Of a DNA stretch of 64,000 bases, positions 20,940 to 52,168 are shown piece by piece. Position numbers and translations under genes: made by a program. The notes below the pieces were generated by a model. The model made no database searches and was not told the origin of the DNA. It saw only the letters and a program-made list of their open reading frames with translations. Positions within the stretch are counted from its first letter, which is position 1. Each line of letters begins with the position of its first letter. Source of the stretch: an uncultured Bacteroidales bacterium (GTDB taxonomy: Bacteria; Bacteroidota; Bacteroidia; Bacteroidales; JAGOPY01); the NCBI GenBank assembly GCA_963823285.1, contig CAWGKX010000006.1, positions 87,648-151,647 of the forward strand. The letters run 5' to 3'.

Positions 20940-21716
20940 CTATCCAGAGATTCTTCTCCTGTAAATGAACAATGTAACCACTGTCATCAGTCCGATGCCC
21001 AGGAACAATGACCAGTTCGAAAGTGGTATCTTATGGCCGCAATTAGTGGATACACAGATGGTGCTCACGGGTTGACCAACAGAGTTTCCGTTAAAATTAT
21101 ATTCCCAGTTGAACTGGACGACGTTTTCGGTGGTTGGGGATGAATCTTGCTGACCGGTCTGATCGACAACCGTCATAACCACTCCGTCATCACCTTGCAG
21201 GTAACCTCCTGACAGGAAATCTTCCTGCAGGTCCCAGATAATGGGTGGACAGAAATTATCCACTCCTTCCAGTGCAACTGGATCTTTTACCCGGAAACAG
21301 ATATGGAATAACTTGGTCCACGTGGTAGTGGACAAAGAGATAGTCGCAGGGCCAAACACCTGGACCTGCCCGTTGAACCATTCCAGCGGGCCGGAAAGTC
21401 CGAAGAAAGACCCGCTACCGGGAGCTTGTTGCTCAACCACGGGAGGTTCCAGAACGTTATATCCATCCTGGAAGTCACCTATTGACAGGTATTCAAGGAT
21501 ATTGCCATCATAAAAGAAGCGGACATTCATCCCAAATAGCTTCTGCCCGGGAGTATCGGAAATAAATTCGACGTCCAGGCAATAGGTTTGGGTGGGACAG
21601 TCGTAAACCGGATTGGCAAAACGAACTGTCACCACAGGTAAAGCAGGTTGAGCCGCGACTTGAAATCCAGATAAAACCAGGATAAAAAGCACAGGCAGAT
21701 AGATTTTAGTTTTCAT
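20940..21716 (-). CDS. Cohesin-like domain protein with C-terminal TM/basic sorting-signal-like tail (copy A)
   Basis: The 258-aa ORF has the signal peptide MKTKIYLPVLFILVLSGFQVAAQ. Its module contains VRFFYDGNILEYLSIG, matching the xIxYDxxxLxFxG landmark of the other cohesin-like modules in the locus. The tail is IPLSNWSLFLGIGLMTVVTLFIYRRRISG. Confidence 0.6.
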   Translation of the reverse strand: MKTKIYLPVLFILVLSGFQVAAQPALPVVTVRFANPVYDCPTQTYCLDVEFISDTPGQKLFGMNVRFFYDGNILEYLSIGDFQDGYNVLEPPVVEQQAPGSGSFFGLSGPLEWFNGQVQVFGPATISLSTTTWTKLFHICFRVKDPVALEGVDNFCPPIIWDLQEDFLSGGYLQGDDGVVMTVVDQTGQQDSSPTTENVVQFNWEYNFNGNSVGQPVSTICVSTNCGHKIPLSNWSLFLGIGLMTVVTLFIYRRRISG

Positions 21717-23118
21717 AATATGCTTGTTTTATAATGATACAATAACATGACATTCTTTTGCAGGATAAATCCTGTGTTGGTTTGATAAGATTAAAGAATA
21801 TATGATCTTTCATGACCGTGGGAATTTAATTTTTGGGTACTGAAGAGAATTTACCATTGTTAAACTCCCAGGTGGTGCGATCGTTATAATTGCAGTCACC
21901 GTTGAGGTTGTAATCGCCGGTGCGATAACGGCCTGTAGTGCCATTCTGACCTTCCCAGTAGGTTCTGTCATCAAAGTTGATATCAGTAACAGAACTGGCA
22001 GGGATCACCTGCTGACCATTACCGGCATACATGGCGAAGATGCCCGGGAGGATCTCCTTCTGTCCGTAGCCTAATCCGGTGATAACATCGATATAACTCT
22101 GGACATTACGGAAGTCGAAAGTGAGGGTGTCATTGGCGATAGGCACCGGATCAGCAGACATGACAATCAGGTGATTACGATGTTCGATGACCAGGTAGTA
22201 GGAACTGTCTAAATTCAGGCTGCAGCAGTCAAAACCACCATCCACAAATTCGATATGGCCGTCGTTATGCAGTAGTGCAGCTTTGCGGCATAGATTTCCA
22301 CCTTCGGGGGCACTCCTGAGGGATACCAGCACCCAATCCACCACAGTGGCAGGATAGTTAGCAGTGCCAGGATTTGGGTTTCCATGAGAATCATATCCGA
22401 AGCCTTCAGTGCCGTTATAATTCCAGGGAGCACCAGAATAAGGCTGTCCCGGAGGAGTATATACGTTACCGGAAAAGACACTAAAGTATGTTTGACCCGG
22501 CAATATCTTCAGGTTGTTGAGACTGGTGCGCATGGGCACGGTATAAGTCTGGGTACCTCCCGGATTAATCGCAGCACCGTCAAGATATACCCAGGTTTTA
22601 ACAAACAGATCGCTGATGTTGATGATCTGCTGGCATGTCGCTGGATTACCGCAATTATCCTCAATCTCGTAGGTTCGAATGATTGTATTTCCGGATGGTA
22701 CATCACTCACCCAGATAAAGGAACCCTCATCGATACCGCAATTATCCGAGGCGGAACCACCGGCAGCGACGAAGGCTGCATAGTTGGCATACGGATCGGG
22801 TGCCGTGCATATCACAGAAAGGCCAGCAGGGCAGTTCAATGTGGGAGGCTCATTATCGCTTACAGTATAGGTGTAAGTCCAGTCGGCCGTTGTGGTTCCA
22901 TCGCAGGCGGTATAGCGGTATGTCCAGACAACCTGGCCTTCGCAAATAATCGGGTTAGGCGTTGTCACAGAGCCTACCAGAACGGAGGACACTGTTCTTC
23001 CGCATGCATCAGTAATATTAGCTGGGGCACCCGGATTCACTGCATCTACAGAGCAGGATACGGTGGATAATCCGTTAGCCGGCGGGGTAAGTCCGCTGGA
23101 GTAGATAACCGTGTAGGT
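20954..23118. repeat. Segmental duplication, copy A (partner 33866..36029)
   Basis: The two copies are collinear at a constant offset of 12912/12911 bp. They differ by a handful of substitutions and one 1-bp indel in the intergenic part. The segment covers the 258-aa gene, the intergenic spacer and the 3' 1.3 kb of the giant gene. Confidence 0.9.
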
Positions 23119-26100
23119 CTTGGTCCAGTCGGCCGTGGTGGTTCCGTTACAGGCAGTATAACGGTATCTCCAGACAATAGATCCATTGCAGGTCACCGGG
23201 TTGGGTGTTTGTTCCTTACCAATTAAGGTTGCCGAGACGGTACGTCCGCAGGCATCGGTAATATTGGCAGGGGCACCCGGATCGGTTGCATTGGACGGGC
23301 AGGAAACAGTGGCGGTGGTGTTGACCGGAGGGGTCAGACTACCGGAGTAAATAACCGTGTAGGTCTTGGTCCAGTCGGCCGTGGTGGTTCCGTCACATGC
23401 GGTATAACGGTATCTCCATACGATCGATCCATTGCAGTCCACCGGATCAGGTGATTGTTCTTTGCCAATTAAGGTTGCCGAGACGGTACGTCCGCAGGCA
23501 TCGGTAATGTTTTCCGGAGCCCCCGGATCGGTTGCATTGGACGGGCAGGAAACAGTGGCGGTGGTGTTAACCGGAGGGGTCAGACTACCGGAGTAAATAA
23601 CCGTGTAGGTCTTGGTCCAGTCGGCCGTAGTGGTTCCATCACAGGCGGTATAACGGTATCTCCAGACGATAGATCCGTTGCATGTCACCGGGTTGGGTGT
23701 TTGTTCCTTACCAATTAAGGTTGCCGAGACGGTACGTCCGCAGGCATCGGTAATGTTGGCAGGAGCGCCCGGGTCGGTTGCATTGGACGGGCAGGAAACA
23801 GTGGCAGTGGCGTTAACCGGAGGGGTTAGTCCGCCAGAGTAAATCACCGTGTAGGTCTTGGTCCAGTCGGCGGTGGTGGTTCCGTCACATGCGGTATAAC
23901 GGTATCTCCAGACGATCGATCCATTGCATGTCACCGGGTTGGGAGTTTGTTCCTCGCCGACTAAGGTTGCCGGGCCGGTAAGTCCGCAGGCATCGGTAAT
24001 GTTGGCAGGAGCGCCCGGGTCGGTTGCATCAGCCGGGCAGGAAACAGTGGCGGTGGCGTTAGCCGGAGGGGTAAGTCCGCCGGAGTAAATCACCGTGTAG
24101 GTCTTGGTCCAGTCGGCCGTAGTGGTTCCATCACAGGCGGTGTAACGGTATCTCCATACGATCGATCCGTTGCAGGTCACCGGGTTGGGTGTTTGTTCCT
24201 CGCCGACTAAGGTTGCCGAGACAGTGCGTCCGCAGGCATCGGTAATGTTGGCAGGCGCCCCTGGATCGGTTGCATTGGACGGGCAGGAAACAGTGGCGGT
24301 AGTGTTAACCGGAGGGGTAAGTCCGCCGGAGTAGATCACCGTGTAGGTCTTGGTCCAGTCGGCCGTTGTGGTTCCGTCACAGGCGGTATAACGGTATCTC
24401 CATACGATCGATCCGTTGCAGGTCACCGGGTTGGGTGTTTGTTCCTCGCCGACTAAGGTTGCCGAGACAGTGCGTCCGCAGGCATCGGTAATGTTGGCAG
24501 GCGCCCCTGGATCGGTTGCATTGGACGGGCAGGAAACAGTGGCAGTGGCGTTAGCCGGAGGGGTCAGGCCGCCAGAGTAGATCACCGTGTAGGTCTTGGT
24601 CCAGTCGGCCGTTGTGGTTCCATCACAGGCGGTATAACGGTATCTCCAGACGATCGATCCGTTGCAGGTCACCGGGTTGGGTGTTTGTTCTTCGCCAACT
24701 AAGGTTGCCGAGACAGTGCGTCCGCAGGCATCGGTAATGTTGGCAGGCACCCCAGGGTCGGTTGCATTGGACGGGCAGGAAACAGTGGCAGTGGCGTTAG
24801 CCGGAGGGGTCAGTCCGCCGGAGTAGATCACCGTGTAGGTCTTGGTCCAGTCGGCCGTTGTGGTTCCGTCACAGGCGGTATAACGGTATCTCCATACGAT
24901 CGATCCATTGCAGGTCACAGGGTTGGGTGTTTGTTCCTCACCGACTAAGGTTGCCGAAACGGTACGTCCGCAGGCATCGGTAATGTTGGCAGGAGCGCCC
25001 GGGTCGGTTGCATTGGACGGGCAGGAAACAGTGGCGGTGGTGTTAGCCGGAGGGATCAAGCCGCCGGAGTAAATAACCGTGTAGGTCTTGGTCCAGTCGG
25101 CCGTTGTGGTTCCATCACAGGCGGTATAACGGTATCTCCAGACGATCGATCCATTGCAGTCCACCGGGTTGGGTGTTTGTTCTTTCCCGACTAAGGTTGC
25201 CGGGACGGTACGTCCGCAGGCATCGGTAATATTGGCAGGAGCACCCGGATCGGATGCATTGGACGGGCAGGAAACAGTGGCGGTGGTGTTAACAGGAGGA
25301 GTAAGTCCGCCGGAGTAAATAACCGTGTAGGTCTTGGTCCAGTCGGCCGTTGTGGTTCCGTCACAGGCGGTATAACGGTATCTCCAGACAATAGATCCAT
25401 TGCAGGTCACCGGGTTGGGTGTTTGTTCCTTGCCAATTAAGGTTGCCGGGACGGTACGTCCGCAGGCATCGGTAATATTGGCAGGAGCGCCCGGGTCGGT
25501 TGCATTGGACGGGCAGGAAACAGTGGCGGTGGTGTTAGCCGGAGGGGTCAGGCCGCCGGAGTAGATAACCGTGTAGGTCTTGGTCCAGTCGGCCGTTGTG
25601 GTTCCATCACAGGCGGTATAACGGTATCTCCATAGGATCGATCCGTTGCATGTCACCGGATCAGGTGTTTGTTCCTCACCGACTAAGATTGCCGAGACGG
25701 TACGTCCGCAGGCATCGGTAATGTTTTCCGGAGTCCCCGGATCGATTGCATTGGACGGGCAGGAAACAGTGGCGGTGGCGTTAACCGGAGGGGTCAGTCC
25801 GCCGGAGTAAATAACCGTGTAGGTCTTAGTCCAGTCGGCCGTTGTGGTTCCATCACAGGCGGTATAACGGTATCTCCATACGATAGATCCATTGCAGTCC
25901 ACTGGGTTGGGTGTTTGTTCCTTACCAATTAAGGTTGCCGAGACGGTACGTCCGCAGGCATCGGTAATGTTGCCAGGAGCGCCCGGGTCGGTTGCATTGG
26001 ACGGGCAGGAAACAGTGGCGGTGGTGTTAGCCGGAGGGGTCAGTCCGCCGGAGTAGATAACCGTGTAGGTCTTGGTCCAGTCGGCCGTTGTGGTTCCATC

Positions 26101-29100
26101 ACAGGCGGTATAACGGTATCTCCATACGATCGATCCATTGCAGGTCACCGGGTTGGGAGTTTGTTCCTCACCGACTAAGATTGCCGAGACGGTACGTCCG
26201 CAGGCATCGGTAATGTTGCCAGGAGCGCCCGGGTCGGTTGCATTGGACGGGCAGGAAACAGTGGCGGTGGTGTTAACCGGCGGGGTCAGTCCGCCGGAGT
26301 ATATAACCGTGTAGGTCTTGGTCCAGTCGGCGGTGGTGGTTCCATCACAGGCGGTATAACGGTATCTCCATACGATCGATCCATTGCAGTCCACCGGATC
26401 AGGTGATTGTTCCTTACCGACTAAGGTGGCAGAGACGGTACGTCCGCAGGCATCAGTAATGTTTTCCGGAGCGCCCGGATCGGTTGCATTGGACGGGCAG
26501 GAAACAGTGGCGGTTGTGTTAACCGGAGGGGTCAGTCCGCCGGAGTAAATAACCGTGTAGGTCTTGGTCCAGTCGGCCGTGGTGATTTCGTCACAGGCGG
26601 TATAACGGTATCTCCATAGGATCGATCCGTTGCATGTCACCGGATCAGGTGTTTGTTCCTCACCGACTAAGGTTGCCGAGACAGTGCGTCCGCAGGCATC
26701 GGTAATGTTTTCCGGAGCGCCCGGATCGATTGCATTGGACGGGCAGGAAACAGTGGCGGTGGTGTTAACCGGCGGGGTAAGTCCGCCGGAGTAAATAACC
26801 GTGTAGGTCTTGGTCCAGTCGGCCGTTGTGGTTCCATCACAGGCGGTATAACGGTATCTCCATACGATAGATCCATTGCAGTCCACCGGATCAGGTGTTT
26901 GTTCCTCACCGACTAAGGTTGCCGAGACAGTGCGTCCGCAGGCATCGGTAATGTTTTCCGGAGTCCCCGGATCGGTTGCATTGGACGGGCAGGAAACAGT
27001 GGCGGTTGTGTTAACCGGAGGTGTCAGTCCGCCGGAGTAAATCACCGTGTAGGTCTTGGTCCAGTCGGCCGTTGTGATTTCGTCACAGGCGGTATAACGG
27101 TATCTCCAGACGATCAATCCATTGCAGTCCACCGGGTTGGGTGTTTGTTCTTTCCCGACTAAGGTTGCCGAGACGGTACGTCCGCAGGCATCGGTAATGT
27201 TGCCAGGAGCGCCCGGGTCGGTTGCATTGGACGGGCAGGAAACAGTGGCGGTGGTGTTAACCGGCGGGGTCAGTCCGCCGGAGTAAATAACCGTGTAGGT
27301 CTTGGTCCAGTCGGCCGTTGTGGTTCCATCACAGGCGGTATAACGGTATCTCCATACGATCAATCCATTGCAGTCCACCGGGTTGGGTGTTTGTTCCTTG
27401 CCAATTAAGGTTGCCGAGACGGTACGTCCGCAGGCATCGGTAATGTTGGCAGGAGCGCCCGGGTCGGTTGCATTGGACGGGCAGGAAACAGTGGCGGTGG
27501 TGTTAACCGGAGGGGTCAGTCCGCCGGAGTAAATAACCGTGTAGGTCTTGGTCCAGTCGGCCGTTGTGATTTCGTCACAGGCGGTATAACGGTATCTCCA
27601 GACGATCGATCCATTGCAGTCCACCGGGTTGGGTGTTTGTTCTTTCCCGACTAAGGTTGCCGAGACGGTACGTCCGCAGGCATCGGTAATGTTGCCAGGA
27701 GCGCCCGGGTCGGTTGCATTGGACGGGCAGGAAACAGTGGCGGTGGTGTTAACCGGAGGTGTCAGTCCGCCGGAGTAAATAACCGTGTAGGTCTTGGTCC
27801 AGTCGGCCGTTGTGATTTCGTCACAGGCGGTATAACGGTATCTCCAGACGATCGATCCATTGCAGTCCACCGGGTTGGGTGTTTGTTCTTTCCCGACTAA
27901 GGTTGCCGAGACGGTACGTCCGCAGGCATCGGTAATGTTGCCAGGAGCGCCCGGGTCGGTTGCATTGGACGGGCAGGAAACAGTGGCGGTGGTGTTAACC
28001 GGAGGTGTCAGTCCGCCGGAGTAAATAACCGTGTAGGTCTTGGTCCAGTCGGCCGTTGTGATTTCGTCACAGGCGGTATAACGGTATCTCCATACGATCG
28101 ATCCATTGCAGTCCACCGGATCAGGTGATTGTTCCTTACCGACTAAGGTGGCAGAGACGGTACGTCCGCAGGCATCAGTAATGTTTTCCGGAGCGCCCGG
28201 ATCGGTTGCATTGGACGGGCAGGAAACAGTGGCGGTTGTGTTAACCGGAGGTGTCAGTCCGCCGAAGTAAATCACCGTGTAGGTCTTGGTCCAGTCGGCC
28301 GTTGTGATTTCGTCACAGGCGGTATAACGGTATCTCCATACGATCGATCCGTTGCAGTTTACCGGATCAGGTGTTTGTTCCTTGCCAACTAAGGTTGCCG
28401 AGACGGTACGTCCGCAGGCATCGGTAATATTGGCAGGGGCACCCGGATCGGTTGCATTGGACGGGCAGGAAACAGTGGCGGTGGTGTTAACCGGAGGGGT
28501 CAGTCCGCCGGAGTAGATAACCGTGTAGGTCTTCGTCCAGTCGGCCGTGGTGATTCCATCACAGGCGGTATAACGGTATCTCCAGACGATCGATCCATTG
28601 CAGTCCACCGGATCAGGTGATTGTTCCTTACCGACTAAGGTGGCAGAGACGGTACGTCCGCAGGCATCGGTAATATTGGCAGGAGCACCCGGATCGGTTG
28701 CATTGGACGGGCAGGAAACAGTGGCGGTGGTGTTAACCGGAGGGGTCAGTCCGCCGGAGTAGATAACCGTGTAGGTCTTCGTCCAGTCGGCCGTGGTGAT
28801 TCCATCACAGGCGGTATAACGGTATCTCCAGACGATCGATTCATTGCAGTTCACCGGGTTGGGAGTTTGTTCCTTGCCGACTAAGGCTGCCGAGACGGTA
28901 CGTCCGCAGGCATCGGTAATGTTGGCAGGAGCACCCGGATCGGTTGCATTGGACGGGCAGGAAACAGTGGCGGTGGTGTTAACCGGAGGGGTCAGTCCGC
29001 CGGAGTATGTAATGGTATAGGTATAAGTCCATACAAATTCTAGGTTGGCACAATCCTTATAAGTGTAAATCCAGGTATAGGTTCCATTGCAGCCGGCATA

Positions 29101-32100
29101 GCTTCCGCCATTTGTTGGAGTCGGGACAGAAAGGATATTGCCGCATATATCTTTGACCACAGGCAGGGTAATAGGTGCTGTGGCATTGGCCAGACACTGA
29201 ACGGTACCGCCATTGGTTGAAACCGGTCCGCCGGACTCGGCAGGTGGAGTGGTATGAGTGAGGTTGAAAACCTGTGTGCATGTGTTGGGATTACTGCAGG
29301 AATCCGTTACCTGGTAAGTCCGCGTGACAGTTAATGCACATGTCCCTTCGACTGTCTGTCCTAAATAACTAAAGGTATAGATATCACCACAATTATCAGT
29401 GGCTGTTCCACCTGCAGCGCGAAATGCTCCTATGTTTGCATAAGGAGCTGGTAAGTCTGCAACGCACTGATAGCTTGAACTGCCGGGAGGACAGGTAATC
29501 GAAGGAGCTATTGAATCCTTCACCGTAATCGTCTGTGAGCAATCTGCGTGATTTCCGCTTTGGTCAGTGGCTCGGTAAGTTCGCGTAATAGTGAATTTAT
29601 TTGGGCACGTCTTATTTGTGATAACGTCTCCCTGCCATGTAATAAGAATATCAGCAGGTAGGGTACAATCGTCAGTCGCGGTCACAGAAGAAGTATTTTC
29701 CGGAGGTACTGCTGAAGCACAGGCAACAGTCAAATTCGCCGGGCATGTAATATTTGGCGCAGAGTTAGGTGGCAGCGTACTGAATGAAATATCATCTAAG
29801 CCAAAATCATTTCCTCCCGCAATGGTTTGAAGATCAACGATTCTTATTACTGCAGAAGTGTTGCTGCCTGAATTCCAAACAGAATAGAATCTATTCCAGA
29901 CGAAAGGTCCTGCAGTTGTGGTGGCTCCTGGAGGCAATTGAAAAGGATATCCCAGCAGAATGCCATTTATACTGAATTGCAAAAATGCGTACGTATTATT
30001 TGCCTGGTTTAAACTCATTGCCCAGGCGTTAAAATAGTAATTGGTGTTTGGTGTGACCGTAATATTCTCTTGCCATACTGTTATACCGGGAGAGACATTG
30101 CCATTTATAGCCATATAAAGGCCAGTGCCCGGGTTTGTGTGATCAGTACCGAAAAAATTGGTATGTTGTGCATTAGAATTAGGTGTAACTGCATAAAGTC
30201 CTTCAGGCACCAGATCTGCCGGAGCATAAATATATGCAGATGTAAAACCTGTATTTCCCGCCGTAAAGTTTCCATTCGTGACAAGTTCACCGCCAACATT
30301 AACGTCTTGTGTATTTGAGCATCCGCCCGCAGTTGTGACGGTAACAGTATAAATACCTGCCTGATGCGCAATAATGGATTGTGTGGTCTCTCCTGTATTC
30401 CATAAGTAAGAGGCAAATGCGGGATCGACCGTCAATTGAATATCGACATTTTGTATACAATTATTTGAATTTATTGTAAACGAGGGCGCTGTACCTCCCG
30501 ACACTGTCACAGTCACTGTTCCGCAGGCTGAATTCAGGTTACATGGACTGCCGGATTCATAGCGGCCCCAATATTGTGTAGTACCAGCTGGTGTTACTTT
30601 TAAATTATCTCCTGTCCCAACGAGAGTACCGCCGCAACTTCCGGTATACCATTTAATCGTTTGTGCGCCTCCTCCTGCGCCTCCGCCACCCCCGGTCAAA
30701 GAAAGAATAGAAAAGCCCCCGGTACAGATCGAAGCAGGACTGGCAGCAGCCGTTGGAGCGCCAATTGCAGCGCATGCTGCACCGATAGCAAAATCACCGA
30801 AACCGGATAGTCCTGTAGCTGTTGTAGATGTTGCAAGTGGGTTAGTTGTTGTTGGTGAAGTCCAGGCGGAAGAAAAGAATCTTTTAACTAAAAAGTTCGC
30901 AGTGATGTTCTTAGCTGAGGGATCTATATCAACCGGAGTTACCCAGCCAATAAAAGTAAATGTAGCAGTGTATGTTCCTATTGCAAGAGCGCCTCCTGCA
31001 GTTAAAGTCCAGTAACGGTTAACATCATTGGCAGGATCAATGCCTGAAGTATTAATATTAGGATGTTCAGTTTTAGTGTTTTTGGCTGTTAAAGTTCCGG
31101 CAACTGTTACATTTAGTGCCGTAATGGCGATAGGAGTGTAGCTAAGCGAATCTCCAATGTAAAACGTCTTGGATTGGCCGGCTCCGGTCCCTAATGTCCA
31201 CTCTAAATTTCCATAAACATACAAGCCGGCTCCTGCTCCAACCACACTTGCAGCTGTGCCAAGAGTCAGTTTATTTGCTCCTGTCGTGATTTTTCCGCTT
31301 GTGAAGGTGAGTATACCTGTAACAGTTGCATTCACCCCATTTAGCTTAACTCCCCCGGTATTATCGATGGTTAAATTAGTAAATGTCGTCGCACTTGAAC
31401 CGCTTATAGTCTGTGCTCCTCCATTGAAAACTATAGTACCTGTGTTTGCGGTAAATGTGCCATTGTTTGTCCAGTCACCGACTAAACTAAGTGTATTTAT
31501 CGAACCAAGCAATATCCCGCCTGTGTTTATAGTAAGCTTACTCGCTGTTGAAGCAGCATTGACGGTTATTGTATGCCCGCTGAGAATGGTAATGGAAATG
31601 GCGGCATTGGTAGGTACAACGGACGAAGTCACCCATATGACATTATCGGTTGAGATTTCCCAAGTATTTGCAGTGTTCCAGTTACCTGTGATCCTTGAAC
31701 GAAAATAATTGGCAAAAGGTTCACCGATCTGGAAATCACTGAAACTCGTAAGCCCCGTAGCTTGTGTAGTCGTCGCCGTTCTTGTCCCGGTAGTTGTTGA
31801 GTTCCATACGGAAGAAGCGAACCTTTGAATGATGAAGTTCGCAGTATTAGCTCCGGCATCCAGATCACCGGGGTTAATAAAAGTAAACGTGGCGTTATAA
31901 TTCGATAAAACAAGCCCTCCACCGGAGGCTAATGTCCAGTAACGATTAACTGATCTTATTGGTGCAATGTTGGAGCTGCCAATGTTCGGATGATCGCCGG
32001 CAGTTGTGCGCGCCATTGTAGTTCCGGGAGTGGTCACACTATTGAAAGTAATGGAAACCGGTGTATAAGCCGTCTCATCACCGATTGCAAAATTTTTGGT

Positions 32101-33465
32101 TGTTGTACCTGCTGGAATTGTCCATTCTAAATTTCCAATTACCCATCCTGTACCTCCACCGACAACAGTTGCCGATGAACCAAGCGTTAACTTAAAGAAT
32201 GGACCTGAAGTTATATTCCCACTGGTGAATGTAAGCGTGCCGTTCACAATTTCGCCAAATGAATCTACCAATGAGACCCCGGTGGCATTGTTGACTATCA
32301 AATTATTAAAGGCTGTCACTGTGAGGCCTGTAATAAACTGCTGAGCAGTACCATTGAAAGTCACCGTTCCGGTCCCGGCTGTGAAAGTCCCGTCATTTCC
32401 AAAATCACCGCCCAGGGTCAGATTAAAATTACCCGTATTTAAACTCCCGTTGACTATTTCGAGATTGACTGCGGCATTAAATGTTTTTGCCCCATTTAGC
32501 GTGATAACACCGGTATTTGTAATGATCACCCCACCGGTTGCCGCAAAAGGTGTTATCCATTCCAGCCCTGCCGTACGCGAACTGGCTGTATTGTATTGCA
32601 AAGTTGCTGCCGCGCCGTAAGTCGGTGCTACAGAAGCAGTAGCAGTTCCTTCCATGGAGAGGATACCTCCCACAGTCACTCCGGTTGTAGTTTTTATATT
32701 CGAACCGGGACCACCGGAAAGTGTTAGATTAGTATACGTTGATGGTTTGACAGTTTGTGCCCCGGTTCTGCTATAATTGACCGTTGCCCCGGTTCCGTTG
32801 AAAGTTGTTGTAAATACTCCGCTGTTCCCGGTCGTTCCGAATGGCGTTGCACCACCAAGCACTAAGTTGGGATTGAAATTTCCTAAAGTCAAAGTTGCTA
32901 TACAAGCTGCATTGCTCGCTGTAACGGGTGTAATTGTCCCGTTTACAGTTACCATTCCGCTATTTTCTATGAACGAGGAATTATCTGAAAATGTGCCGGA
33001 TCTGCTGCTTGTAATGGTCAAATTGCCTGTAATAGTAAAATTCAGGATAGTTGAGGTCATTATAGTTGTTCTGGTACCCGTCGGTGTAACAGCAGTGCCA
33101 ACATTTGCTGATGCACAGGCTAATGTCCCGGCACCTTCTATTAAACAAGCAGTATTTCCTCCTGCTGCACTGTTTAAAGTCACGGCATTTGTAACTGTAA
33201 CCGTGATTCCGCTGTTAATATTTAGAGTTGCAATAGCCCCGTTAAAAGTAATTGAGAGACAGGTAGTAGTCACATCGCCTGTCAGGGTAATTCCGTTCGG
33301 AATTACCACATCATCGCCTGAACCGGGAACACCGGTTGGTGTCCAGGTACTTCCGGTATTCCAGTTTCCTGTAAATGCAGTTTTAGTAATTGCATGCGTC
33401 AATGAAACTGTAAATAATAAAATTAGTACAGTCAGTGCTGCTTTTAACAAAGAACTCGTCTTCAT
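21826..33465 (-). CDS. Giant secreted adhesin-like protein (about 3879 aa): beta-helix-like head, CBM-like domain, HYR-like Cys domains, 25 x 82-aa repeats, conserved C-terminal module with dockerin-like end
   Basis: One uninterrupted ORF runs 21826..33549. I prefer Met29 (ATG at 33463-33465), which gives the signal peptide MKTSSLLKAALTVLILLFTVSLTHA. No T9SS C-terminal domain is recognisable at the C-terminus (...GDYNLNGDCNYNDRTTWEFNNGKFSSVPKN). Confidence 0.9.
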   Translation of the reverse strand: MKTSSLLKAALTVLILLFTVSLTHAITKTAFTGNWNTGSTWTPTGVPGSGDDVVIPNGITLTGDVTTTCLSITFNGAIATLNINSGITVTVTNAVTLNSAAGGNTACLIEGAGTLACASANVGTAVTPTGTRTTIMTSTILNFTITGNLTITSSRSGTFSDNSSFIENSGMVTVNGTITPVTASNAACIATLTLGNFNPNLVLGGATPFGTTGNSGVFTTTFNGTGATVNYSRTGAQTVKPSTYTNLTLSGGPGSNIKTTTGVTVGGILSMEGTATASVAPTYGAAATLQYNTASSRTAGLEWITPFAATGGVIITNTGVITLNGAKTFNAAVNLEIVNGSLNTGNFNLTLGGDFGNDGTFTAGTGTVTFNGTAQQFITGLTVTAFNNLIVNNATGVSLVDSFGEIVNGTLTFTSGNITSGPFFKLTLGSSATVVGGGTGWVIGNLEWTIPAGTTTKNFAIGDETAYTPVSITFNSVTTPGTTMARTTAGDHPNIGSSNIAPIRSVNRYWTLASGGGLVLSNYNATFTFINPGDLDAGANTANFIIQRFASSVWNSTTTGTRTATTTQATGLTSFSDFQIGEPFANYFRSRITGNWNTANTWEISTDNVIWVTSSVVPTNAAISITILSGHTITVNAASTASKLTINTGGILLGSINTLSLVGDWTNNGTFTANTGTIVFNGGAQTISGSSATTFTNLTIDNTGGVKLNGVNATVTGILTFTSGKITTGANKLTLGTAASVVGAGAGLYVYGNLEWTLGTGAGQSKTFYIGDSLSYTPIAITALNVTVAGTLTAKNTKTEHPNINTSGIDPANDVNRYWTLTAGGALAIGTYTATFTFIGWVTPVDIDPSAKNITANFLVKRFFSSAWTSPTTTNPLATSTTATGLSGFGDFAIGAACAAIGAPTAAASPASICTGGFSILSLTGGGGGAGGGAQTIKWYTGSCGGTLVGTGDNLKVTPAGTTQYWGRYESGSPCNLNSACGTVTVTVSGGTAPSFTINSNNCIQNVDIQLTVDPAFASYLWNTGETTQSIIAHQAGIYTVTVTTAGGCSNTQDVNVGGELVTNGNFTAGNTGFTSAYIYAPADLVPEGLYAVTPNSNAQHTNFFGTDHTNPGTGLYMAINGNVSPGITVWQENITVTPNTNYYFNAWAMSLNQANNTYAFLQFSINGILLGYPFQLPPGATTTAGPFVWNRFYSVWNSGSNTSAVIRIVDLQTIAGGNDFGLDDISFSTLPPNSAPNITCPANLTVACASAVPPENTSSVTATDDCTLPADILITWQGDVITNKTCPNKFTITRTYRATDQSGNHADCSQTITVKDSIAPSITCPPGSSSYQCVADLPAPYANIGAFRAAGGTATDNCGDIYTFSYLGQTVEGTCALTVTRTYQVTDSCSNPNTCTQVFNLTHTTPPAESGGPVSTNGGTVQCLANATAPITLPVVKDICGNILSVPTPTNGGSYAGCNGTYTWIYTYKDCANLEFVWTYTYTITYSGGLTPPVNTTATVSCPSNATDPGAPANITDACGRTVSAALVGKEQTPNPVNCNESIVWRYRYTACDGITTADWTKTYTVIYSGGLTPPVNTTATVSCPSNATDPGAPANITDACGRTVSATLVGKEQSPDPVDCNGSIVWRYRYTACDGITTADWTKTYTVIYSGGLTPPVNTTATVSCPSNATDPGAPANITDACGRTVSATLVGKEQTPDPVNCNGSIVWRYRYTACDEITTADWTKTYTVIYFGGLTPPVNTTATVSCPSNATDPGAPENITDACGRTVSATLVGKEQSPDPVDCNGSIVWRYRYTACDEITTADWTKTYTVIYSGGLTPPVNTTATVSCPSNATDPGAPGNITDACGRTVSATLVGKEQTPNPVDCNGSIVWRYRYTACDEITTADWTKTYTVIYSGGLTPPVNTTATVSCPSNATDPGAPGNITDACGRTVSATLVGKEQTPNPVDCNGSIVWRYRYTACDEITTADWTKTYTVIYSGGLTPPVNTTATVSCPSNATDPGAPANITDACGRTVSATLIGKEQTPNPVDCNGLIVWRYRYTACDGTTTADWTKTYTVIYSGGLTPPVNTTATVSCPSNATDPGAPGNITDACGRTVSATLVGKEQTPNPVDCNGLIVWRYRYTACDEITTADWTKTYTVIYSGGLTPPVNTTATVSCPSNATDPGTPENITDACGRTVSATLVGEEQTPDPVDCNGSIVWRYRYTACDGTTTADWTKTYTVIYSGGLTPPVNTTATVSCPSNAIDPGAPENITDACGRTVSATLVGEEQTPDPVTCNGSILWRYRYTACDEITTADWTKTYTVIYSGGLTPPVNTTATVSCPSNATDPGAPENITDACGRTVSATLVGKEQSPDPVDCNGSIVWRYRYTACDGTTTADWTKTYTVIYSGGLTPPVNTTATVSCPSNATDPGAPGNITDACGRTVSAILVGEEQTPNPVTCNGSIVWRYRYTACDGTTTADWTKTYTVIYSGGLTPPANTTATVSCPSNATDPGAPGNITDACGRTVSATLIGKEQTPNPVDCNGSIVWRYRYTACDGTTTADWTKTYTVIYSGGLTPPVNATATVSCPSNAIDPGTPENITDACGRTVSAILVGEEQTPDPVTCNGSILWRYRYTACDGTTTADWTKTYTVIYSGGLTPPANTTATVSCPSNATDPGAPANITDACGRTVPATLIGKEQTPNPVTCNGSIVWRYRYTACDGTTTADWTKTYTVIYSGGLTPPVNTTATVSCPSNASDPGAPANITDACGRTVPATLVGKEQTPNPVDCNGSIVWRYRYTACDGTTTADWTKTYTVIYSGGLIPPANTTATVSCPSNATDPGAPANITDACGRTVSATLVGEEQTPNPVTCNGSIVWRYRYTACDGTTTADWTKTYTVIYSGGLTPPANATATVSCPSNATDPGVPANITDACGRTVSATLVGEEQTPNPVTCNGSIVWRYRYTACDGTTTADWTKTYTVIYSGGLTPPANATATVSCPSNATDPGAPANITDACGRTVSATLVGEEQTPNPVTCNGSIVWRYRYTACDGTTTADWTKTYTVIYSGGLTPPVNTTATVSCPSNATDPGAPANITDACGRTVSATLVGEEQTPNPVTCNGSIVWRYRYTACDGTTTADWTKTYTVIYSGGLTPPANATATVSCPADATDPGAPANITDACGLTGPATLVGEEQTPNPVTCNGSIVWRYRYTACDGTTTADWTKTYTVIYSGGLTPPVNATATVSCPSNATDPGAPANITDACGRTVSATLIGKEQTPNPVTCNGSIVWRYRYTACDGTTTADWTKTYTVIYSGSLTPPVNTTATVSCPSNATDPGAPENITDACGRTVSATLIGKEQSPDPVDCNGSIVWRYRYTACDGTTTADWTKTYTVIYSGSLTPPVNTTATVSCPSNATDPGAPANITDACGRTVSATLIGKEQTPNPVTCNGSIVWRYRYTACNGTTTADWTKTYTVIYSSGLTPPANGLSTVSCSVDAVNPGAPANITDACGRTVSSVLVGSVTTPNPIICEGQVVWTYRYTACDGTTTADWTYTYTVSDNEPPTLNCPAGLSVICTAPDPYANYAAFVAAGGSASDNCGIDEGSFIWVSDVPSGNTIIRTYEIEDNCGNPATCQQIINISDLFVKTWVYLDGAAINPGGTQTYTVPMRTSLNNLKILPGQTYFSVFSGNVYTPPGQPYSGAPWNYNGTEGFGYDSHGNPNPGTANYPATVVDWVLVSLRSAPEGGNLCRKAALLHNDGHIEFVDGGFDCCSLNLDSSYYLVIEHRNHLIVMSADPVPIANDTLTFDFRNVQSYIDVITGLGYGQKEILPGIFAMYAGNGQQVIPASSVTDINFDDRTYWEGQNGTTGRYRTGDYNLNGDCNYNDRTTWEFNNGKFSSVPKN
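22873..29022 (-). repeat. Coding tandem array: 25 units of 246 bp (82 aa)
   Basis: The landmark ggagta[ag]ataaccgtgtaggtcttggtccagtcggc recurs at 23098, 23344, 23590 ... 29002, and (29002-23098)/246 = 24. Translation gives 24 near-identical units of the form TYTVIYSGGLTPPVNTTATVSCPSNATDPGAPANITDACGRTVSATLVGKEQTPNPVTCNGSIVWRYRYTACDGTTTADWTK, plus one divergent C-terminal unit. Confidence 0.95.
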
Positions 33466-33785
33466 AAAAATAAATCTTTTGGTATTTTTTTCAATGGCTC
33501 TTGTTTTGACGCTGCCATCAACCTGGGGAAAAGAGTAAATATTTTTCATGATTTTCTTTTTGGATTTAATACTTGGATCTTTTTTTATTGCAGGGGGGAA
33601 AATTCATTGAAACTATTAATTACGGGGGTGATAATGAATCACTGATTGAAGCTTCAAAATGGACATAATGATTCAAAAACCAGTAAGTGCTGAAAATCAT
33701 AATATTAGATAAAAAAAATTGTAATTATAAATTGGTTAATGACTTAGACTAAGGAAAGGTACAAAATATTTTAATACACAGCACA

Positions 33786-33851: not shown

Positions 33852-34628
33852 TTATGAACTCATCCTTCTCCTGTAAATGAACAATGTAACCACTGTCATC
33901 AGTCCGAGGCCCAGGAACAATGACCAGTTCGAAAGTGGTATCTTATGGCCGCAATTAGTGGACACACAGATGGTGCTCACGGGTTGACCAACAGAGTTTC
34001 CGTTAAAATTATATTCCCAGTTGAACTGGACGACGTTTTCGGTGGTTGGGGATGAATCTTGCTGACCGGTCTGATCGACAACCGTCATAACCACTCCGTC
34101 ATCACCTTGCAGGTAACCTCCTGACAGGAAATCTTCCTGCAGGTCCCAGATAATGGGTGGACAGAAATTATCCACTCCTTCCAGTGCAACTGGATCTTTT
34201 ACCCGGAAACAGATATGGAATAACTTGGTCCACGTGGTAGTGGACAAAGAGATAGTCGCAGGGCCAAACACCTGGACCTGCCCGTTGAACCATTCCAGCG
34301 GGCCGGAAAGGCCGAAGAAAGACCCGCTACCGGGAGCTTGTTGCTCAACCACGGGAGGTTCCAGAACGTTATATCCATCCTGGAAGTCACCTATTGACAG
34401 GTATTCAAGGATATTACCATCATAAAAGAAGCGGGCATTCATCCCAAATAGCTTCTGCCCGGGAGTATCGGAAATAAATTCGACGTCCAGGCAATAGGTT
34501 TGGGTGGGACAGTCGTAAACCGGGTTGGCAAAACGAACTGTCACCACAGGTAAAGCAGGTTGAGCCGCGACTTGAAATCCTGATAAAACCAGGATAAAAA
34601 GCACAGGCAGATAGATTTTAGTTTTCAT
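33852..34628 (-). CDS. Cohesin-like domain protein with C-terminal TM/basic tail (copy B)
   Basis: The 258-aa ORF differs from copy A at only a few residues: V65A, LGIGL to LGLGL, and the C-terminus RRRMSS versus RRRISG. Confidence 0.6.
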   Translation of the reverse strand: MKTKIYLPVLFILVLSGFQVAAQPALPVVTVRFANPVYDCPTQTYCLDVEFISDTPGQKLFGMNARFFYDGNILEYLSIGDFQDGYNVLEPPVVEQQAPGSGSFFGLSGPLEWFNGQVQVFGPATISLSTTTWTKLFHICFRVKDPVALEGVDNFCPPIIWDLQEDFLSGGYLQGDDGVVMTVVDQTGQQDSSPTTENVVQFNWEYNFNGNSVGQPVSTICVSTNCGHKIPLSNWSLFLGLGLMTVVTLFIYRRRMSS

Positions 34629-36029
34629 AATATGCTTATTTTATAATGATACAATAAATTGACATTCTTTGCAGGATAAATCCTGTGTTGGTTTGATAAG
34701 ATTAAAGAATATATGATCTTTCATGACCGTGGGAATTTAATTTTTGGGTACTGAAGAGAATTTACCATTGTTAAACTCCCAGGTGGTGCGGTCGTTATAA
34801 TTGCAGTCGCCGTTGAGGTTGTAATCGCCGGTGCGATAACGGCCTGTAGTGCCATTCTGACCTTCCCAGTAGGTTCTGTCATCAAAGTTGATATCAATAA
34901 CAGAACTGGCAGGGATCACCTGCTGACCATTACCGGCATACATGGCGAAGATGCCCGGGAGGATCTCCTTCTGTCCGTAGCCTAATCCGGTGATAACATC
35001 GATATAACTCTGGACATTACGGAAGTCGAAAGTGAGGGTGTCATTGGCGATAGGCACCGGATCAGCAGACATGACAATCAGGTGATTACGATGTTCGATG
35101 ACCAGGTAGTAGGAACTGTCGAAATTCAGGCTGCAGCAATCAAAACCACCATCCACAAATTCCACATGGCCGTCGTTATGCAGTAGTGCAGCTTTGCGGC
35201 ATAGATTTCCGCCTTCCGGGGCACTCCTGAGGGATACCAGCACCCAATCCACCACAGTGGCAGGATAGTTAGCAGTGCCAGGATTTGGGTTTCCATGAGA
35301 ATCATATCCGACGCCTTCAGTGCCGTTATAATTCCAGGGAGCACCAGAATAAGGCTGTCCCGGAGGAGTATATACGTTACCGGAAAAGACACTAAAGTAT
35401 GTTTGACCCGGCAATATCTTCAGGTTGTTGAGACTGGTGCGCATGGGCACGGTATAAGTCTGGGTACCTCCCGGATTAATCGCAGCACCGTCAAGATATA
35501 CCCAGGTTTTAACAAACAGATCGCTGATGGTGATGATCTGCTGGCATGTCACAGGATTACCGCAATTATCCTCAATCTCGTAGGTTCGTATGATTGTATT
35601 TCCGGATGGTACATCACTCACCCAGATAAAGGAACCCTCATCGATACCGCAATTATCCGAGGCGGAACCACCGGCAGCGACGAAGGCTGCATAGTTGGCA
35701 TACGGATCAGGGGCCGTGCATATCACAGAAAGGCTATCAGGGCAGTTCAATGTAGGAGGCTCATTATCGCTTACAGTATAGGTGTAAGTCCAGTCGGCCG
35801 TTGTGGTTCCATCGCAGGCGGTATAGCGGTATGTCCAGACAACCTGGCCTTCGCAAATAATCGGGTTAGGCGTTATCTGAGAGCCTACCAGAACTGGGGA
35901 CGCTGTTCTTCCGCATGCATCAGTAATATTAGCTGGGGCACCCGGATTCACTGCATCTACAGAGCAGGATACGGTGGATAATCCGTTAGCCGGCGGGGTA
36001 AGTCCGCTGGAGTAGATAACCGTGTAGGT
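33866..36029. repeat. Segmental duplication, copy B (partner 20954..23118)
   Basis: See copy A. Confidence 0.9.
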
Positions 36030-39000
36030 CTTGGTCCAGTCGGCCGTGGTGGTTCCGTTACAGGCTGTATAACGGTACCTCCAGACAATTGATCCGTTGC
36101 ATGTCACCGGGTTGGGAGTTTGTTCCTTGCCAATTAAGGTTGCCGAGACGGTACGTCCGCAGGCATCGGTAATGTTGGCAGGAGCGCCCGGATCGGTTGC
36201 ATTGGACGGGCAGGAAACAGTGGCGGTGGTGTTAGCCGGCGGGGTCAGTCCGCCGGAGTAGATAACCGTGTAGGTCTTGGTCCAGTCGGCCGTTGTGGTT
36301 CCGTTACAGGCGGTATAACGGTATCTCCATACGATCGATCCATTGCAGGTCACCGGGTTCGGTGTTTGTTCTTTACCAATTAAGGTTGCCGAGACGGTAC
36401 GTCCGCAGGCATCGGTAATGTTGGCAGGAGCGCCCGGATCGGTTGCATTGGACGGGCAGGAAACAGTGGCGGTGGTGTTAACAGGAGGAGTAAGTCCGCC
36501 GGAGTAAATAACCGTGTAGGTCTTGGTCCAGTCGGCCGTTGTGGTTCCGTTACAGGCAGTATAACGGTATCTCCAGACGATAGATCCGTTACAGGTCACC
36601 GGGTTGGGTGTTTGTTCCTTGCCGACTAAGGTTGCCGAGACGGTACGTCCGCAGGCATCGGTAATGTTGGCAGGAGCGCCCGGATCGGTTGCATTGGACG
36701 GGCAGGAAACAGTGGCGGTGGTGTTGACCGGAGGTGTAAGTCCACCAGAGTAGATAACCGTGTAGGTCTTGGTCCAGTCGGCCGTTGTGGTTCCGTCACA
36801 GGAAGTATAACGGTATCTCCAGACAATCGATCCGTTGCATGTCACCGGGTTGGGTGTTTGTTCCTTGCCAATTAAGGTTGCCGAGACGGTACGTCCGCAG
36901 GCATCGGTAATGTTGGCAGGAGCGCCCGGGTCGGTTGCATTGGACGGGCAGGAAACAGTGGCGGTAGCGTTAGCCGGCGGGGTCAATGCGCCGGAGTAAA
37001 TAACCGTGTAGGTGTAAGTCCAGACATACTCGAGGTTGGCACAATCCTTATACGTGTAGGTATATGTTCTGGAACCACTGCAGGTCAGTGGGTCCGGACT
37101 ATCAACGATCACTGGTGTAGGAGCCGGGAGAATATTTCCGCAAACATCTTTGACCACGGGAAGTGCCGGTGCAGCCGTCAGGCACTCAACGGTGCTGGAA
37201 GTTGCAACTGGTCCGCCAAACTGAGTTGGAGCCGTAGTATGCATAATTGTAATTGTCTGAGTACAGGTTTGCTGGTGAAGGCAAGTATCCTTTATTCCAT
37301 AAGTACGGGTTATGACTTCAGGACATGTATTACCGTCTGAATCGTCACTTATCCAGGCAAATGAGGATATCAGGATGCCGCTTAAATCATCCGATGCTGA
37401 ACCACCGGCAGCGACAAAGGCAGCATAGTCCGGATAAACATCTGGAACTGTGCATTGGGCCGTTAGTGGGCCAGGGCAGTTCATAACTGGTGGCGCATTG
37501 TCAGGGTAGAAAGTTTCTCCTTTAACAGAACTATATCCACATTCATTTTGTGCCCTGACTCTAACATTAAATGAAGTGACATTGTTGGGAACTGATAATA
37601 TGATTTTTCTGAGGAATTGGCCGGTTCCGCTCTGCTGCGTTCCAAGAACAACCGGGCTGTCCCATTCCCAAAAATAATTTTGCGCACCGAGTACTACTGA
37701 AGCTTCAATAAGGACATCTGTGTTCCCGGATATTAAACTGTCCGGAAAACAGATTCCATTGGGCATTGTTATATCCGCCGGCGGATCGGGAGGAAGAGTC
37801 GTGGTTTGAAATAGGGGAGAAGTCCAGATATTAGTTCCACAAGCATTTACTGTGGTTATTGATACGGTAATAGGTGTGCTTCCTATGAATAACCGGACAA
37901 ATCTTGTTCCCTGGCCTGAAATTATTTGCCAGCCGTCCGAAACTACCCAATTATATGAAATGGCCCCCTGTACATCATTCACGCTGAAGTCAGCAATCGA
38001 ACCGATGCAGGCAGGGTTAGGACCTGTAATTTCAATTGGTGGACCCGGAGGGCCAATAGAGTACAGTATAAATTTATCAGAATTTATGATTACATCACAA
38101 TCAACAGTTGAAATTTTAACAAGAGTAATAGTTGTACTATCGGTAATAGGTATGGTTTTGGTATCCGAAATATTTGGGCTGTTCACAATTTGCGACTGCT
38201 CAGTCCCTCCGTTAATCTTGTAATAATAAGTCCAGGGAAAAATATTCCCCAGGTAATTAACTGTAAATGTAATGTTGACAGGTGTATGTTCTGGAGTGCC
38301 GCAAACATCGGGCGTTACCGTGAGCGATCCGGTTGGAAGGACTATCGAATTGCCGTTAAAACTATCAGATGCAACATAGCAGTTTGTATTATTTAAATTT
38401 TCTTCACTGGCAGCAGAAACTAACCTGAAAATTTTATTTCCTATCGAACCAATAGCAAGATCTATATAAGCATTAGCAAAATCAGGTATAGGGCTTCCTA
38501 TATTCACCCAGTTTGATGTGTTAATATCGGCTTCCTGCCACTGAAAAACATAAGGAATATCAGGAGGGATGCTCCCGGAAGTAATCGTGCCTTGAAGCCT
38601 GATTAGTCCGGTTGTGCAATAATCAGTGGAAATTCTCTCATACCCGATCGTAAACGGAATAAATGGCCGGAATGTGATATCATCAATAGCTAAGTCGTTG
38701 CCACACCCGCCATCTCCATTATTTCTTAATATGATAAATATGCTATCCTGATTTTGAGGCACGATGAAGATTATAGAAGTTGAATTCCAGGTTAGAGTTG
38801 TTGTTGCATTTACAACACCTGTATTAGTTTGCGCGAGTAATTTAGCGCCGTTACATGCAGTCCCGCCAACTGGTAAAAGAGAATTGGCTTCATCATCACC
38901 CGGGTTTTTATCCCATATTTCATAACGGATATTAATTGGAAGACCGCTGCCTCCGCATGCGGTCGGCTTAAGTACATTAGCATAATATGATTTGTATTCA

Positions 39001-52158: not shown

Positions 52159-52168
52159 TCCGCAATCT

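Follow-up and report, generated by a model that had tools for sequence, protein, structure and literature searches.

Does a Bacteroidales bacterium that encodes a type IX secretion system (T9SS) also anchor or process surface proteins by a second route? The question is raised by a stretch of 64,000 nucleotides (nt) from an uncultured Bacteroidales bacterium (GTDB lineage JAGOPY01; GenBank assembly GCA_963823285.1, contig CAWGKX010000006.1, positions 87,648 to 151,647 of the forward strand), hereafter the window, in which two paralogous proteins of 258 amino acids (aa) and a mini-protein of 77 aa each end in a short Pro-containing motif, one transmembrane (TM) helix and a basic cluster. An earlier note, made from the sequence alone, had proposed that these tails could be sorting signals of the exosortase type, with plain anchoring in the inner membrane as the alternative. 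Here we show that the tail of the 258-aa proteins, which we call tail A, is a conserved module found at the end of unrelated proteins, and that an exosortase-family gene lies beside a tail-A gene in a related lineage. The tail of the 77-aa protein, tail B, belongs to a different class. Loci and proteins from other genomes are referred to by L and P numbers.

Results

Tail A is a conserved C-terminal module

Copy A of the 258-aa protein is encoded on the minus strand at 20940..21716 and copy B, likewise on the minus strand, at 33852..34628. Their translations end in ...CGHKIPLSNWSLFLGIGLMTVVTLFIYRRRISG and ...FLGLGLMTVVTLFIYRRRMSS, respectively, which combine to ...CGHKIPLSNWSLFLG(I/L)GLMTVVTLFIYRRR(ISG/MSS). 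In copy A, an N-terminal signal peptide (MKTKIYLPVLFILVLSGFQVAAQ, judged by inspection; residues 1-23) is followed by a cohesin-like beta-sandwich (~27-226), closed by a C-x4-C loop, and then by tail A (227-258). The tail occupies 20943..21038 (minus strand) and reads GHK-IPLSNW-SLFLGIGLMTVVTLFIY-RRR-ISG, with nt 21012-21029 encoding the IPLSNW motif, 20961-21014 the TM helix and 20952-20960 the RRR cluster; the span 20940-21030, singled out in the earlier note, holds the stop codon and the final ~29 codons. Tail A of copy B lies at 33855-33950 with RRRMSS as its last residues, and RRR sits three residues from the C-terminus in both copies. Open reading frames (ORFs) and translations bear out the tripartite tails described on both 258-aa proteins and on the 77-aa protein. 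The two 258-aa genes are identical but for 14 of 777 nt. Because both lie inside a 3163-bp segmental duplication (20950-24112 against 33862-37023, 96.3% identity by blastn of the window against itself), which extends from the 258-aa gene across the intergenic spacer into the 3' ~2.3 kb of a giant gene, their two tails amount to a single observation by descent.

The 258-aa protein has 259 homologues, 250-313 aa long and with no Pfam domain, and the tail is kept in 119 of the 120 listed. Mean column identity is 68% in tail A versus 35% over the whole 258-aa protein, with residues P, W, L, I, G, L, M and R of the tail invariant or at least 90% conserved. A profile of tail A gives 44-82 bits on true tails (63-78 bits on that of copy A itself), and in ~1.06 Mb of six-frame translation, where true tails reach 44-64 bits, the best other segment stops at 9.5 bits. 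An AlphaFold2 (AF2) model of the 258-aa protein places residues 235-257 in a C-terminal helix. The tails of the 258-aa and 77-aa proteins are far beyond chance, and the conservation of tail A is unlike that of a generic membrane anchor.

Tail A ends unrelated surface-type proteins

The modularity of tail A was assessed with HMMER, using a 32-position tail-only profile against 1.84 billion (1.84e9) representative proteins at E<=1e-3. The search returned 40 matches in proteins of 43-1807 aa, each match ending 0-11 residues from the C-terminus, and the 258-type domain is absent from 32 of them, which are unrelated proteins. Whether other proteins share the tail was one of the checks set in the earlier note; they do, and at their extreme C-terminus. 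A word-indexed homology search with the 42-aa tail alignment yielded 32 candidates, none of which scored.

The proteins that carry tail A are diverse. P0128 (692 aa) has two cohesin domains, DUF11/DUF7507 and a GEVED-like region; P0151 (1807 aa) combines six GEVED domains with PKD and cadherin-like domains; P0149 (512 aa) has GEVED; and P0154 (1060 aa) has choice-of-anchor J, a domain family named for its occurrence with alternative sorting signals. P0130 (1326 aa) is a giant repeat protein, and several further carriers are small proteins with ordinary signal peptides. N-terminal leaders were recognized by inspection on the complete matches P0128, P0131, P0136, P0146, P0149, P0153, P0154, P0156, P0157, P0159 and P0161. 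Among the proteins of the window, the two 258-aa paralogues alone bear the tail.

The consensus of tail A is [IV]P[LVI]S[ND]W[AS][LI][FY][LI][AG]IGL[IM]...F..[YFW]R[RK][RK], and all 37 aligned tails follow the layout of [IV]P[LVI]S[ND]W, a hydrophobic helix of 18-19 residues and R[RK][RK]. Its signature is therefore [IV]-P-[LVI]-S-[ND]-W, a conserved helix (..L.IGLM..) and RRR. Since a short conserved module ends unrelated, signal-peptide-bearing proteins of surface type, tail A qualifies operationally as a sorting signal.

Tail A has no model in the curated libraries

Neither Pfam nor NCBIfam matches the whole 258-aa proteins. When the 37 tails were scanned in isolation, weak matches arose to 13 NCBIfam families, all but two of which are models of C-terminal sorting signals or sortase substrates. 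LPXTG_anchor was matched by 31 of the 37, Heimdall-CTERM by seven, LAVTG by five, IPTL-CTERM by three (best E=3.1e-4) and Loki-CTERM by three; MYXO-CTERM, PVV-CTERM and PEPxxWA-CTERM were matched by one or two tails each (PEPxxWA by 1/37, E=0.15). Neither NCBIfam r20 nor Pfam has a model for tail A, which is a class not yet catalogued.

The frequent LPXTG matches bear on sortase signals, whose similar layout the earlier note had pointed out. That alternative is not supported for tail A. Inspection of ...HKIPLSNW... reveals no LPXTG motif, whole proteins do not match the LPXTG/sortase model (TIGR01167), and the 15.6-18.8 bits scored by isolated tails (cutoff 15.9) come from an alignment confined to model positions 9/10-31/34, presumably the helix and basic part. 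Within the 64-kb window, no sortase was noticed. Tail A also has no GlyGly motif, and library scans gave no GlyGly-CTERM or rhombosortase match. The T9SS C-terminal domain (CTD), a beta-sandwich of ~70-100 aa with types A, B and C, is likewise not matched by the 258-aa or the 77-aa proteins (TIGR04183, TIGR04131, NF033708).

An exosortase-family gene beside a tail-A gene

In locus L080, a gene at 8333-8962 encodes a polytopic protein of 209 aa, 270 bp downstream of the tail-A gene for P0149. On TIGR04178, the signature of exosortases and archaeosortases (cutoff 23), the protein reaches 43.6 bits, whereas on pacearchaeosortase and ArtE it stays below cutoff; its homologue P0319 attains 25.4 on Pfam Exosortase_EpsH versus a gathering score of 25.7. 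The stretches VECTAYNF, N.LRFFAMGY and HDY.WN are invariant in 23 exosortase homologues, Cys, Arg and His included, and NCBI names members of the cluster 'exosortase/archaeosortase family protein [Bacteroidales bacterium]'. A second gene (L080 8959-9492) encodes a putative partner of 172-180 aa with ~4 TM helices and no Pfam or NCBIfam family match. In every locus (L080; L083-L114) the partner gene begins within the stop codon region of the exosortase gene, so that stop and start overlap. The gene order of pyrI, tail-A gene, exosortase and partner is found again in L111-L113 and L081, the latter with an exosortase of 82% identity. Among 30 metagenome exosortase loci, L081 is the only one with a tail-A gene nearby, and no adjacent exosortase was found around the other tail-A genes (L077-L079, L117, and the P0156 and P0161 contigs).

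Co-occurrence extends further than adjacency. The tail-A protein P0154 has accessions HNQ82923, HOX78511, HPI86717 and HPM93069, and the exosortase P0319 has HNQ83377, HOX78789, HPI85757 and HPM91415, with the partner at HNQ83378, HOX78790 and HPI85756; because these belong to the same accession series, we infer that four Bacteroidales metagenome-assembled genomes (MAGs) have both. The tail-A giant P0130 (locus tag M0Q51_11595) shares its prefix, and by that its MAG, with an exosortase partner (M0Q51_04495). The P0130 locus, L115, runs tail-A gene, ExbB, ExbD, TonB-like, FolC, ThiS, ThiF, AFOR, helix-turn-helix (HTH) protein, WtpA, and is syntenic with the window at 68-88% protein identity. 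From the locus-tag prefix and this synteny, a close relative of the window organism with the same locus therefore appears to have both tail and enzyme. Tail proteins and exosortase would thus share at least two related MAG lineages, one of them syntenic with the window. The exosortase-family genes for which the earlier note had suggested a search are accordingly present in tail-carrying Bacteroidales MAGs related to the window, and in one lineage they adjoin the tail gene.

A cohesin-like domain encoded beside giant proteins

The earlier note had called the ectodomain of the 258-aa protein cohesin-like, and the label is upheld by predicted fold, not by Pfam. An AF2 model built on a 35-sequence alignment is a confident beta-sandwich (pLDDT 85.9), and the top 25 Foldseek hits in the PDB are all cohesin modules (E 2e-6 to 1e-3, target-normalised TM ~0.5, 9-16% identity); Pfam Cohesin (PF00963) does not match the 258-aa protein. 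The ectodomain is thus predicted to be a cohesin at the level of fold only. Within GTDB, only Bacteroidales-type MAGs have the short form with the tail (one of them bears the label Bacteroidota only). In Saprospiraceae and Lewinellaceae the cohesin-like domain stands at the start of large proteins, and forms of ~415 aa have a T9SS CTD where the tail would be. Because of that CTD, the domain acts outside the outer membrane in Saprospiraceae.

Directly upstream of copy A lies the gene for a giant repeat protein of 3907 aa (21826..33549, minus strand), and directly upstream of copy B that for a giant of 1717 aa (34737..39890, minus strand). Both giants end in the same module of ~75 aa, DINFDDRTYWE...GDYNLNGD.N[FY]NDR..WE.NNGKF[ST]SVPRN, encoded at nt 21829-22053 in the larger (DINFDDRTYWE...GDYNLNGDCNYNDRTTWEFNNGKFSSVPKN; profile score 152.9 bits) and at nt 34740-34964 in the smaller (154.9 bits). 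The last 324 aa of the 3907-aa giant, a region inside the duplication shared with the 1717-aa giant, contain no T9SS CTD or NCBIfam family. 'Dockerin' was considered as a name for the module and downgraded to 'dockerin-like', used purely as an analogy: Pfam and NCBIfam give no match, and the best PDB sequence match is an F-type lectin (E=0.09).

The pairing is conserved. In 10 of 11 Bacteroidales loci and at both window copies, the cohesin-like gene is preceded by a module-ending gene at a distance of 12-123 bp, and such a gene also precedes it in eight other loci, mostly of Saprospiraceae type, with an overall spacing of 12-220 bp (L001, L003-L008, L010, L013, L022, L028, L032, L040, L046, L052, L057, L074 and L075). 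In L115 the corresponding slot is taken by a related giant, which aligns with the 3907-aa protein in two segments (30-38% identity) and itself bears tail A. From this gene pairing, the fold and the L115 tail fusion, the 258-aa protein may be read as an adaptor whose cohesin-like domain grips the giant and whose tail ties the pair to the cell. The cohesin-like module most likely binds the C-terminal module of the giant, and the arrangement suggests that the 258-aa protein is the cell-bound anchor of a giant adhesin-like protein.

Two further features of the giants were recorded. In L052 the downstream cohesin-like protein has the module at its own end as well, an arrangement that points to chains of giants linked head to tail. 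Within the 3907-aa ORF, 22800-33000 (minus strand) consists of ~30 tandem Cys-containing repeats of ~82 aa (...GGLTPPVNTTATVSCPSNATDPGAPANITDACGRTVSATLVGKEQTPNPV.CNGSIVWRYRYTACDG.TTADWTKTYTVIYS...) with a period of ~246 bp and copies ~87-90% identical in DNA; relatives are annotated HYR_4C, and such arrays are prone to assembly collapse or expansion.

The 77-aa protein carries a different tail

The 77-aa ORF (40288..40521, minus strand) has exactly the sequence quoted in the earlier note: a signal peptide, a Gly/Pro linker and tail B (YAPIGSGLIILLSLAAGYGSKKIYNARKKLVE, nt 40291-40386), with only ~20 residues between signal peptide and tail. Its 136 homologues, nearly all of 76-85 aa, are conserved from the signal peptide to the final residue, with the family consensus AQPMPGGDPSGGGxNxPVGGYAP[IV]GSGLIILLALGAGYGSKKVYNARKKLVE, and the position of the gene is kept in the syntenic locus L074.

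Tail B approaches the NCBIfam model PID-CTERM (PID_CTERM, NF046080), with 23.2 bits for the whole protein (E=4.4e-5) and 25.1 for the isolated tail against a cutoff of 26; residues 48-69 align with positions 2-23 of the 25 in the model. Forty-eight of 50 family members match at E<=0.01 (best E=1.4e-6). The motif in tail B is P-[IV]-G, versus the P-I-D that the model name implies. Tail B may thus be regarded as borderline PID-CTERM. Exosortase X (NF046081) would be the cognate enzyme of that class, going by its adjacent accession number. No account of PID-CTERM was found in the literature searched. Many of the 77-aa homologues (P0166, P0172, P0219 and others) have a precomputed match to Pfam PF28310.

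The earlier note had treated the tails of the 258-aa and 77-aa proteins as one architecture. The common layout stands, but a common class does not: tails A and B are alike in layout only, and since neither profile detects the other, a single class for both was ruled out.

Other genes of the locus

The window is a Bacteroidales-type locus with nearly all genes on the minus strand. Directly downstream of copy A, NCBIfam models identify ExbB/TolQ-like (20134-20730) and ExbD (19680-20087) genes, both on the minus strand. A tail-A gene stands immediately upstream of ExbB-ExbD(-TonB-like)-FolC-ThiS-ThiF-AFOR in the window, L004, L008, L074, L076 and L115, and may be the 258-aa cohesin form, the 692-aa form or the 1326-aa giant. 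A gene of 271-291 aa between ExbD and FolC in L074, L076 and L115, with weak TonB matches in L074 only, is absent from the window.

Neighbouring proteins do use T9SS CTDs, as the earlier note had said. Cohesin-family surface proteins (PF00963) with a type A CTD (TIGR04183/PF18962) are encoded on the minus strand at 40579-43041 (820 aa), 45427-47121 (564 aa) and 47215-52158 (1647 aa), and a 756-aa protein with four cohesin domains (PF00963) and a weak dockerin-like end at 43110-45380 (minus strand). The 1647-aa protein has many Cys-rich modules of ~100-110 aa (…C..CPYG.Y.F…); a 278-aa protein that resembles it in composition comes before it (47215-53005 together, minus strand), and no family was found on either except the CTD. 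T9SS components are GldJ (55786-57258, minus; TIGR03524), PorP/SprF (57290-58321, minus; TIGR03519) and the PorU sortase (58422-62264, plus; NF033707).

Two housekeeping genes are interrupted. lptB is split over overlapping plus-strand frames (11738-12217 covering model positions 2-116 and 11982-12464 covering 105-239), and murF lies in two minus-strand pieces (55126-55740, positions 1-173; 54410-54883, positions 259-417) with ~85 residues missing between them. These splits are either assembly-indel frameshifts or pseudogenes.

Discussion

Taken together, our findings favor the view that tail A is an uncatalogued sorting signal of the PEP-CTERM/exosortase type, that its 258-aa cargo is the anchor of the giant, and that tail B is a second signal; we regard this explanation as probable. 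The exosortase-type reading put forward in the earlier note draws support from the sharing of the tail, from the exosortase in relatives, from the near-threshold PID-CTERM match of tail B and from the predicted cohesin fold of the ectodomain. What we observed are the tails and how well they are conserved, the modular occurrence of tail A, the cohesin fold, the pairing of genes, and an exosortase in relatives and beside a tail gene; what we infer is that this exosortase recognizes and cleaves the tail, where the proteins end up, and that cohesin binds module.

The route that we propose runs as follows. The 258-aa protein would be exported by the Sec system through its N-terminal signal peptide. 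Its tail helix would then keep it for a time in the inner membrane, the basic cluster facing the cytoplasm. There, the short exosortase of ~200 aa, with its invariant Cys, Arg and His, and the small 4-TM partner would recognize the P-x-S-N-W motif and the helix. The tail would then be cleaved off and the protein handed to an envelope acceptor, so that the cohesin-like receptor comes to be displayed on the surface, where its module may bind the conserved C-terminal module of the giant encoded immediately upstream. Such a route would operate in parallel with the T9SS encoded in the window. Tail B would serve as a second exosortase-type signal at the edge of the PID-CTERM class, leaving a mature product from the 77-aa protein of only a ~20-residue Gly/Pro peptide.

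Several results weigh against this explanation. Tail A falls below the cutoff of every curated CTERM model (PEP-CTERM TIGR02595, PEPxxWA, IPTL, MYXO, Loki, Heimdall and PVV), and the L080 enzyme below that of every named Xrt subfamily (XrtH 34 versus 86, XrtX 30 versus 170). A scan of most ORFs of at least 120 aa, together with a multi-TM screen, found no exosortase gene within the 64-kb window. The adjacency of tail-A gene and exosortase is confined to one or two closely related lineages, and 10 other loci have exosortase and partner directly after pyrB-pyrI, without a tail gene. In the window and in the flanks that were fetched, each locus has tail A on a single protein family; its use by several families within one genome is seen only through accession series in relatives. 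The C-terminal module of the giants has no detectable sequence similarity to dockerins, and we know of no exosortase system for which the crossing of the outer membrane by substrates is established.

The plainest rival is that the tails are unprocessed membrane anchors, spread among proteins by domain shuffling, and that the 258-aa and 77-aa proteins are bitopic inner-membrane proteins with periplasmic ectodomains. A signal peptide, one C-terminal helix and a basic cluster obeying the positive-inside rule are just what that topology calls for, and the want of an exosortase within the window is what it would lead one to expect. However, it would be unusual for a passive anchor to be so conserved in motif and helix over 32 unrelated proteins, the cargo domains (cohesin, GEVED, PKD/cadherin, choice-of-anchor J) are of the kinds that surface proteins typically carry, and the orthologous Saprospiraceae domains bear a T9SS CTD and hence act outside the outer membrane there. 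With an exosortase-family gene adjoining a tail gene and sharing MAGs with others, we consider plain anchoring unlikely.

A sorting signal could also be served by another intramembrane protease, for instance a rhombosortase of the rhomboid type, or a CPBP/Rce1-like glutamic protease of the sort that has been put forward for MYXO-CTERM or Synerg-CTERM systems. An Rce1-like/CPBP gene does lie 5.4 kb upstream of the tail-A gene for P0146 in L117, a few tails weakly match MYXO-CTERM models, and exosortase adjacency is limited to one lineage. Yet five unrelated genes separate the L117 CPBP gene from the tail gene, CPBP proteases are ubiquitous, and tail A offers neither a GlyGly motif nor a match to GlyGly-CTERM or rhombosortase models; the scan of most ORFs of at least 120 aa and the multi-TM screen found no rhomboid or CPBP gene within the 64-kb window. 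In L080, L081 and L111-113 the exosortase gene is the direct neighbour of the tail gene (270 bp), and enzyme and tail proteins turn up in the same MAGs. Evidence for a CPBP protease or rhombosortase is much weaker than that for an exosortase, and we think such an enzyme improbable. More doubtful still, to the point of being barely credible, is that the helix docks the protein onto a membrane complex such as the downstream ExbB/ExbD proton channel, which would couple the assembly to an energised motor. The idea has in its favor that a tail-A gene directly precedes ExbB-ExbD in all six loci named above, whatever its N-terminal part. Those loci, however, are one syntenic block of related MAGs (68-88% identity) and effectively one evolutionary observation; tail-A genes in L077, L080 and L117 are not beside ExbB/ExbD, and the layout and weak library matches of tail A are those of sorting signals.

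Returning to an exosortase-type signal, the nearest precedent is PEP-CTERM with exosortase (EpsH/XrtA and other Xrt), a group of Gram-negative sorting systems (Haft et al. 2006, 2012). Tail A resembles it in the combination of a signal peptide with a Pro-containing motif, TM helix and Arg-rich cluster at the extreme C-terminus, in being common to unrelated secreted or surface proteins, and in the presence of a polytopic exosortase with conserved Cys and Arg in tail-carrying relatives, sometimes beside the substrate gene. It differs in having [IV]P[LVI]S[ND]W where the precedent has PEP, with no match to the PEP-CTERM model; in that the enzyme is a short form of ~200 aa that passes only the generic TIGR04178, has an unclassified 4-TM partner and follows pyrB-pyrI instead of lying in an exopolysaccharide locus; and in its host, a T9SS-bearing member of the Bacteroidales. 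The closest motif logic is that of IPTL-CTERM (TIGR04174), in which I-P-(T)-L-S-x-W-(G/A) leads straight into the TM helix and then the basic cluster. However, Pro-to-Trp spacing is one residue shorter in tail A, the three matching tails all score under the cutoff of 20.5 bits, and the tail in the window gives no match; IPTL-CTERM is annotated outside Bacteroidota, for instance on a Methylomirabilis S-layer protein (PMC8671808). From PID-CTERM proper, the 77-aa protein differs in its score below the 26-bit cutoff, its P-[IV]-G motif and its mini-protein size.

Within the phylum, the closest parallel is XrtF with the exosortase F system-associated protein of Flavobacteriia, which likewise joins a short exosortase to a small adjacent membrane partner in Bacteroidota alongside the T9SS. 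In Flavobacterium johnsoniae, deletion of the gene for XrtF or for its associated protein impairs surface colonisation and biofilm formation, and the XrtF substrates are said to be unlike PEP-CTERM and yet to be identified (PMC10936215). The enzyme described here does not match TIGR04128, nor does its partner match a family, and here a candidate substrate signal is identified. No paper was found in the literature searched that describes an exosortase system in Bacteroidales. For the cargo, the comparison is with ScaE of Ruminococcus flavefaciens, a single-cohesin anchoring scaffoldin made of a cohesin and an LPXTG signal. Both pair a small single module of cohesin fold with a C-terminal sorting signal, and both are encoded beside large proteins with a C-terminal docking module. 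In the present case, however, the host is diderm, the signal is of exosortase rather than LPXTG/sortase type, the likeness to cohesin extends to the fold only, and the partner module is not a recognisable dockerin.

The tail A system lies within the known exosortase/CTERM paradigm and is not a new kind of system. What adds interest is that, in an organism with a T9SS, it is coupled to a cohesin-like anchor and to giant surface proteins. It is tempting to speculate that uncultured anaerobic Bacteroidales possess a second, T9SS-independent pathway of surface anchoring, in which a 'VPxSNW-CTERM' signal, a dedicated short exosortase and a 4-TM partner fix a cohesin-like receptor that captures giants without an export or anchoring signal of their own. 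Such a pathway would be a Gram-negative analogue of sortase-anchored cellulosome scaffoldins, its anchor interchangeable with a T9SS CTD, as in Saprospiraceae, or with direct tail fusion, as in L115. We offer this broader picture tentatively, as a possibility rather than an expectation.

The substrates and roles of exosortases in Bacteroidota are essentially unknown, the XrtF study being the only experimental one that we found (PMC10936215). Because tail A and the short exosortase are absent from NCBIfam r20 and Pfam, the proteins concerned are now annotated 'hypothetical'. Tail A supplies a searchable signal, a candidate enzyme with its partner, and a defined cargo with a plausible binding partner next door. 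The question thereby becomes open to experiment in a phylum whose surface display is as a rule ascribed to the T9SS alone, and the pairing of cohesin-like and C-terminal-module genes in Bacteroidales and Saprospiraceae may prove to be a means of assembling very large surface proteins.

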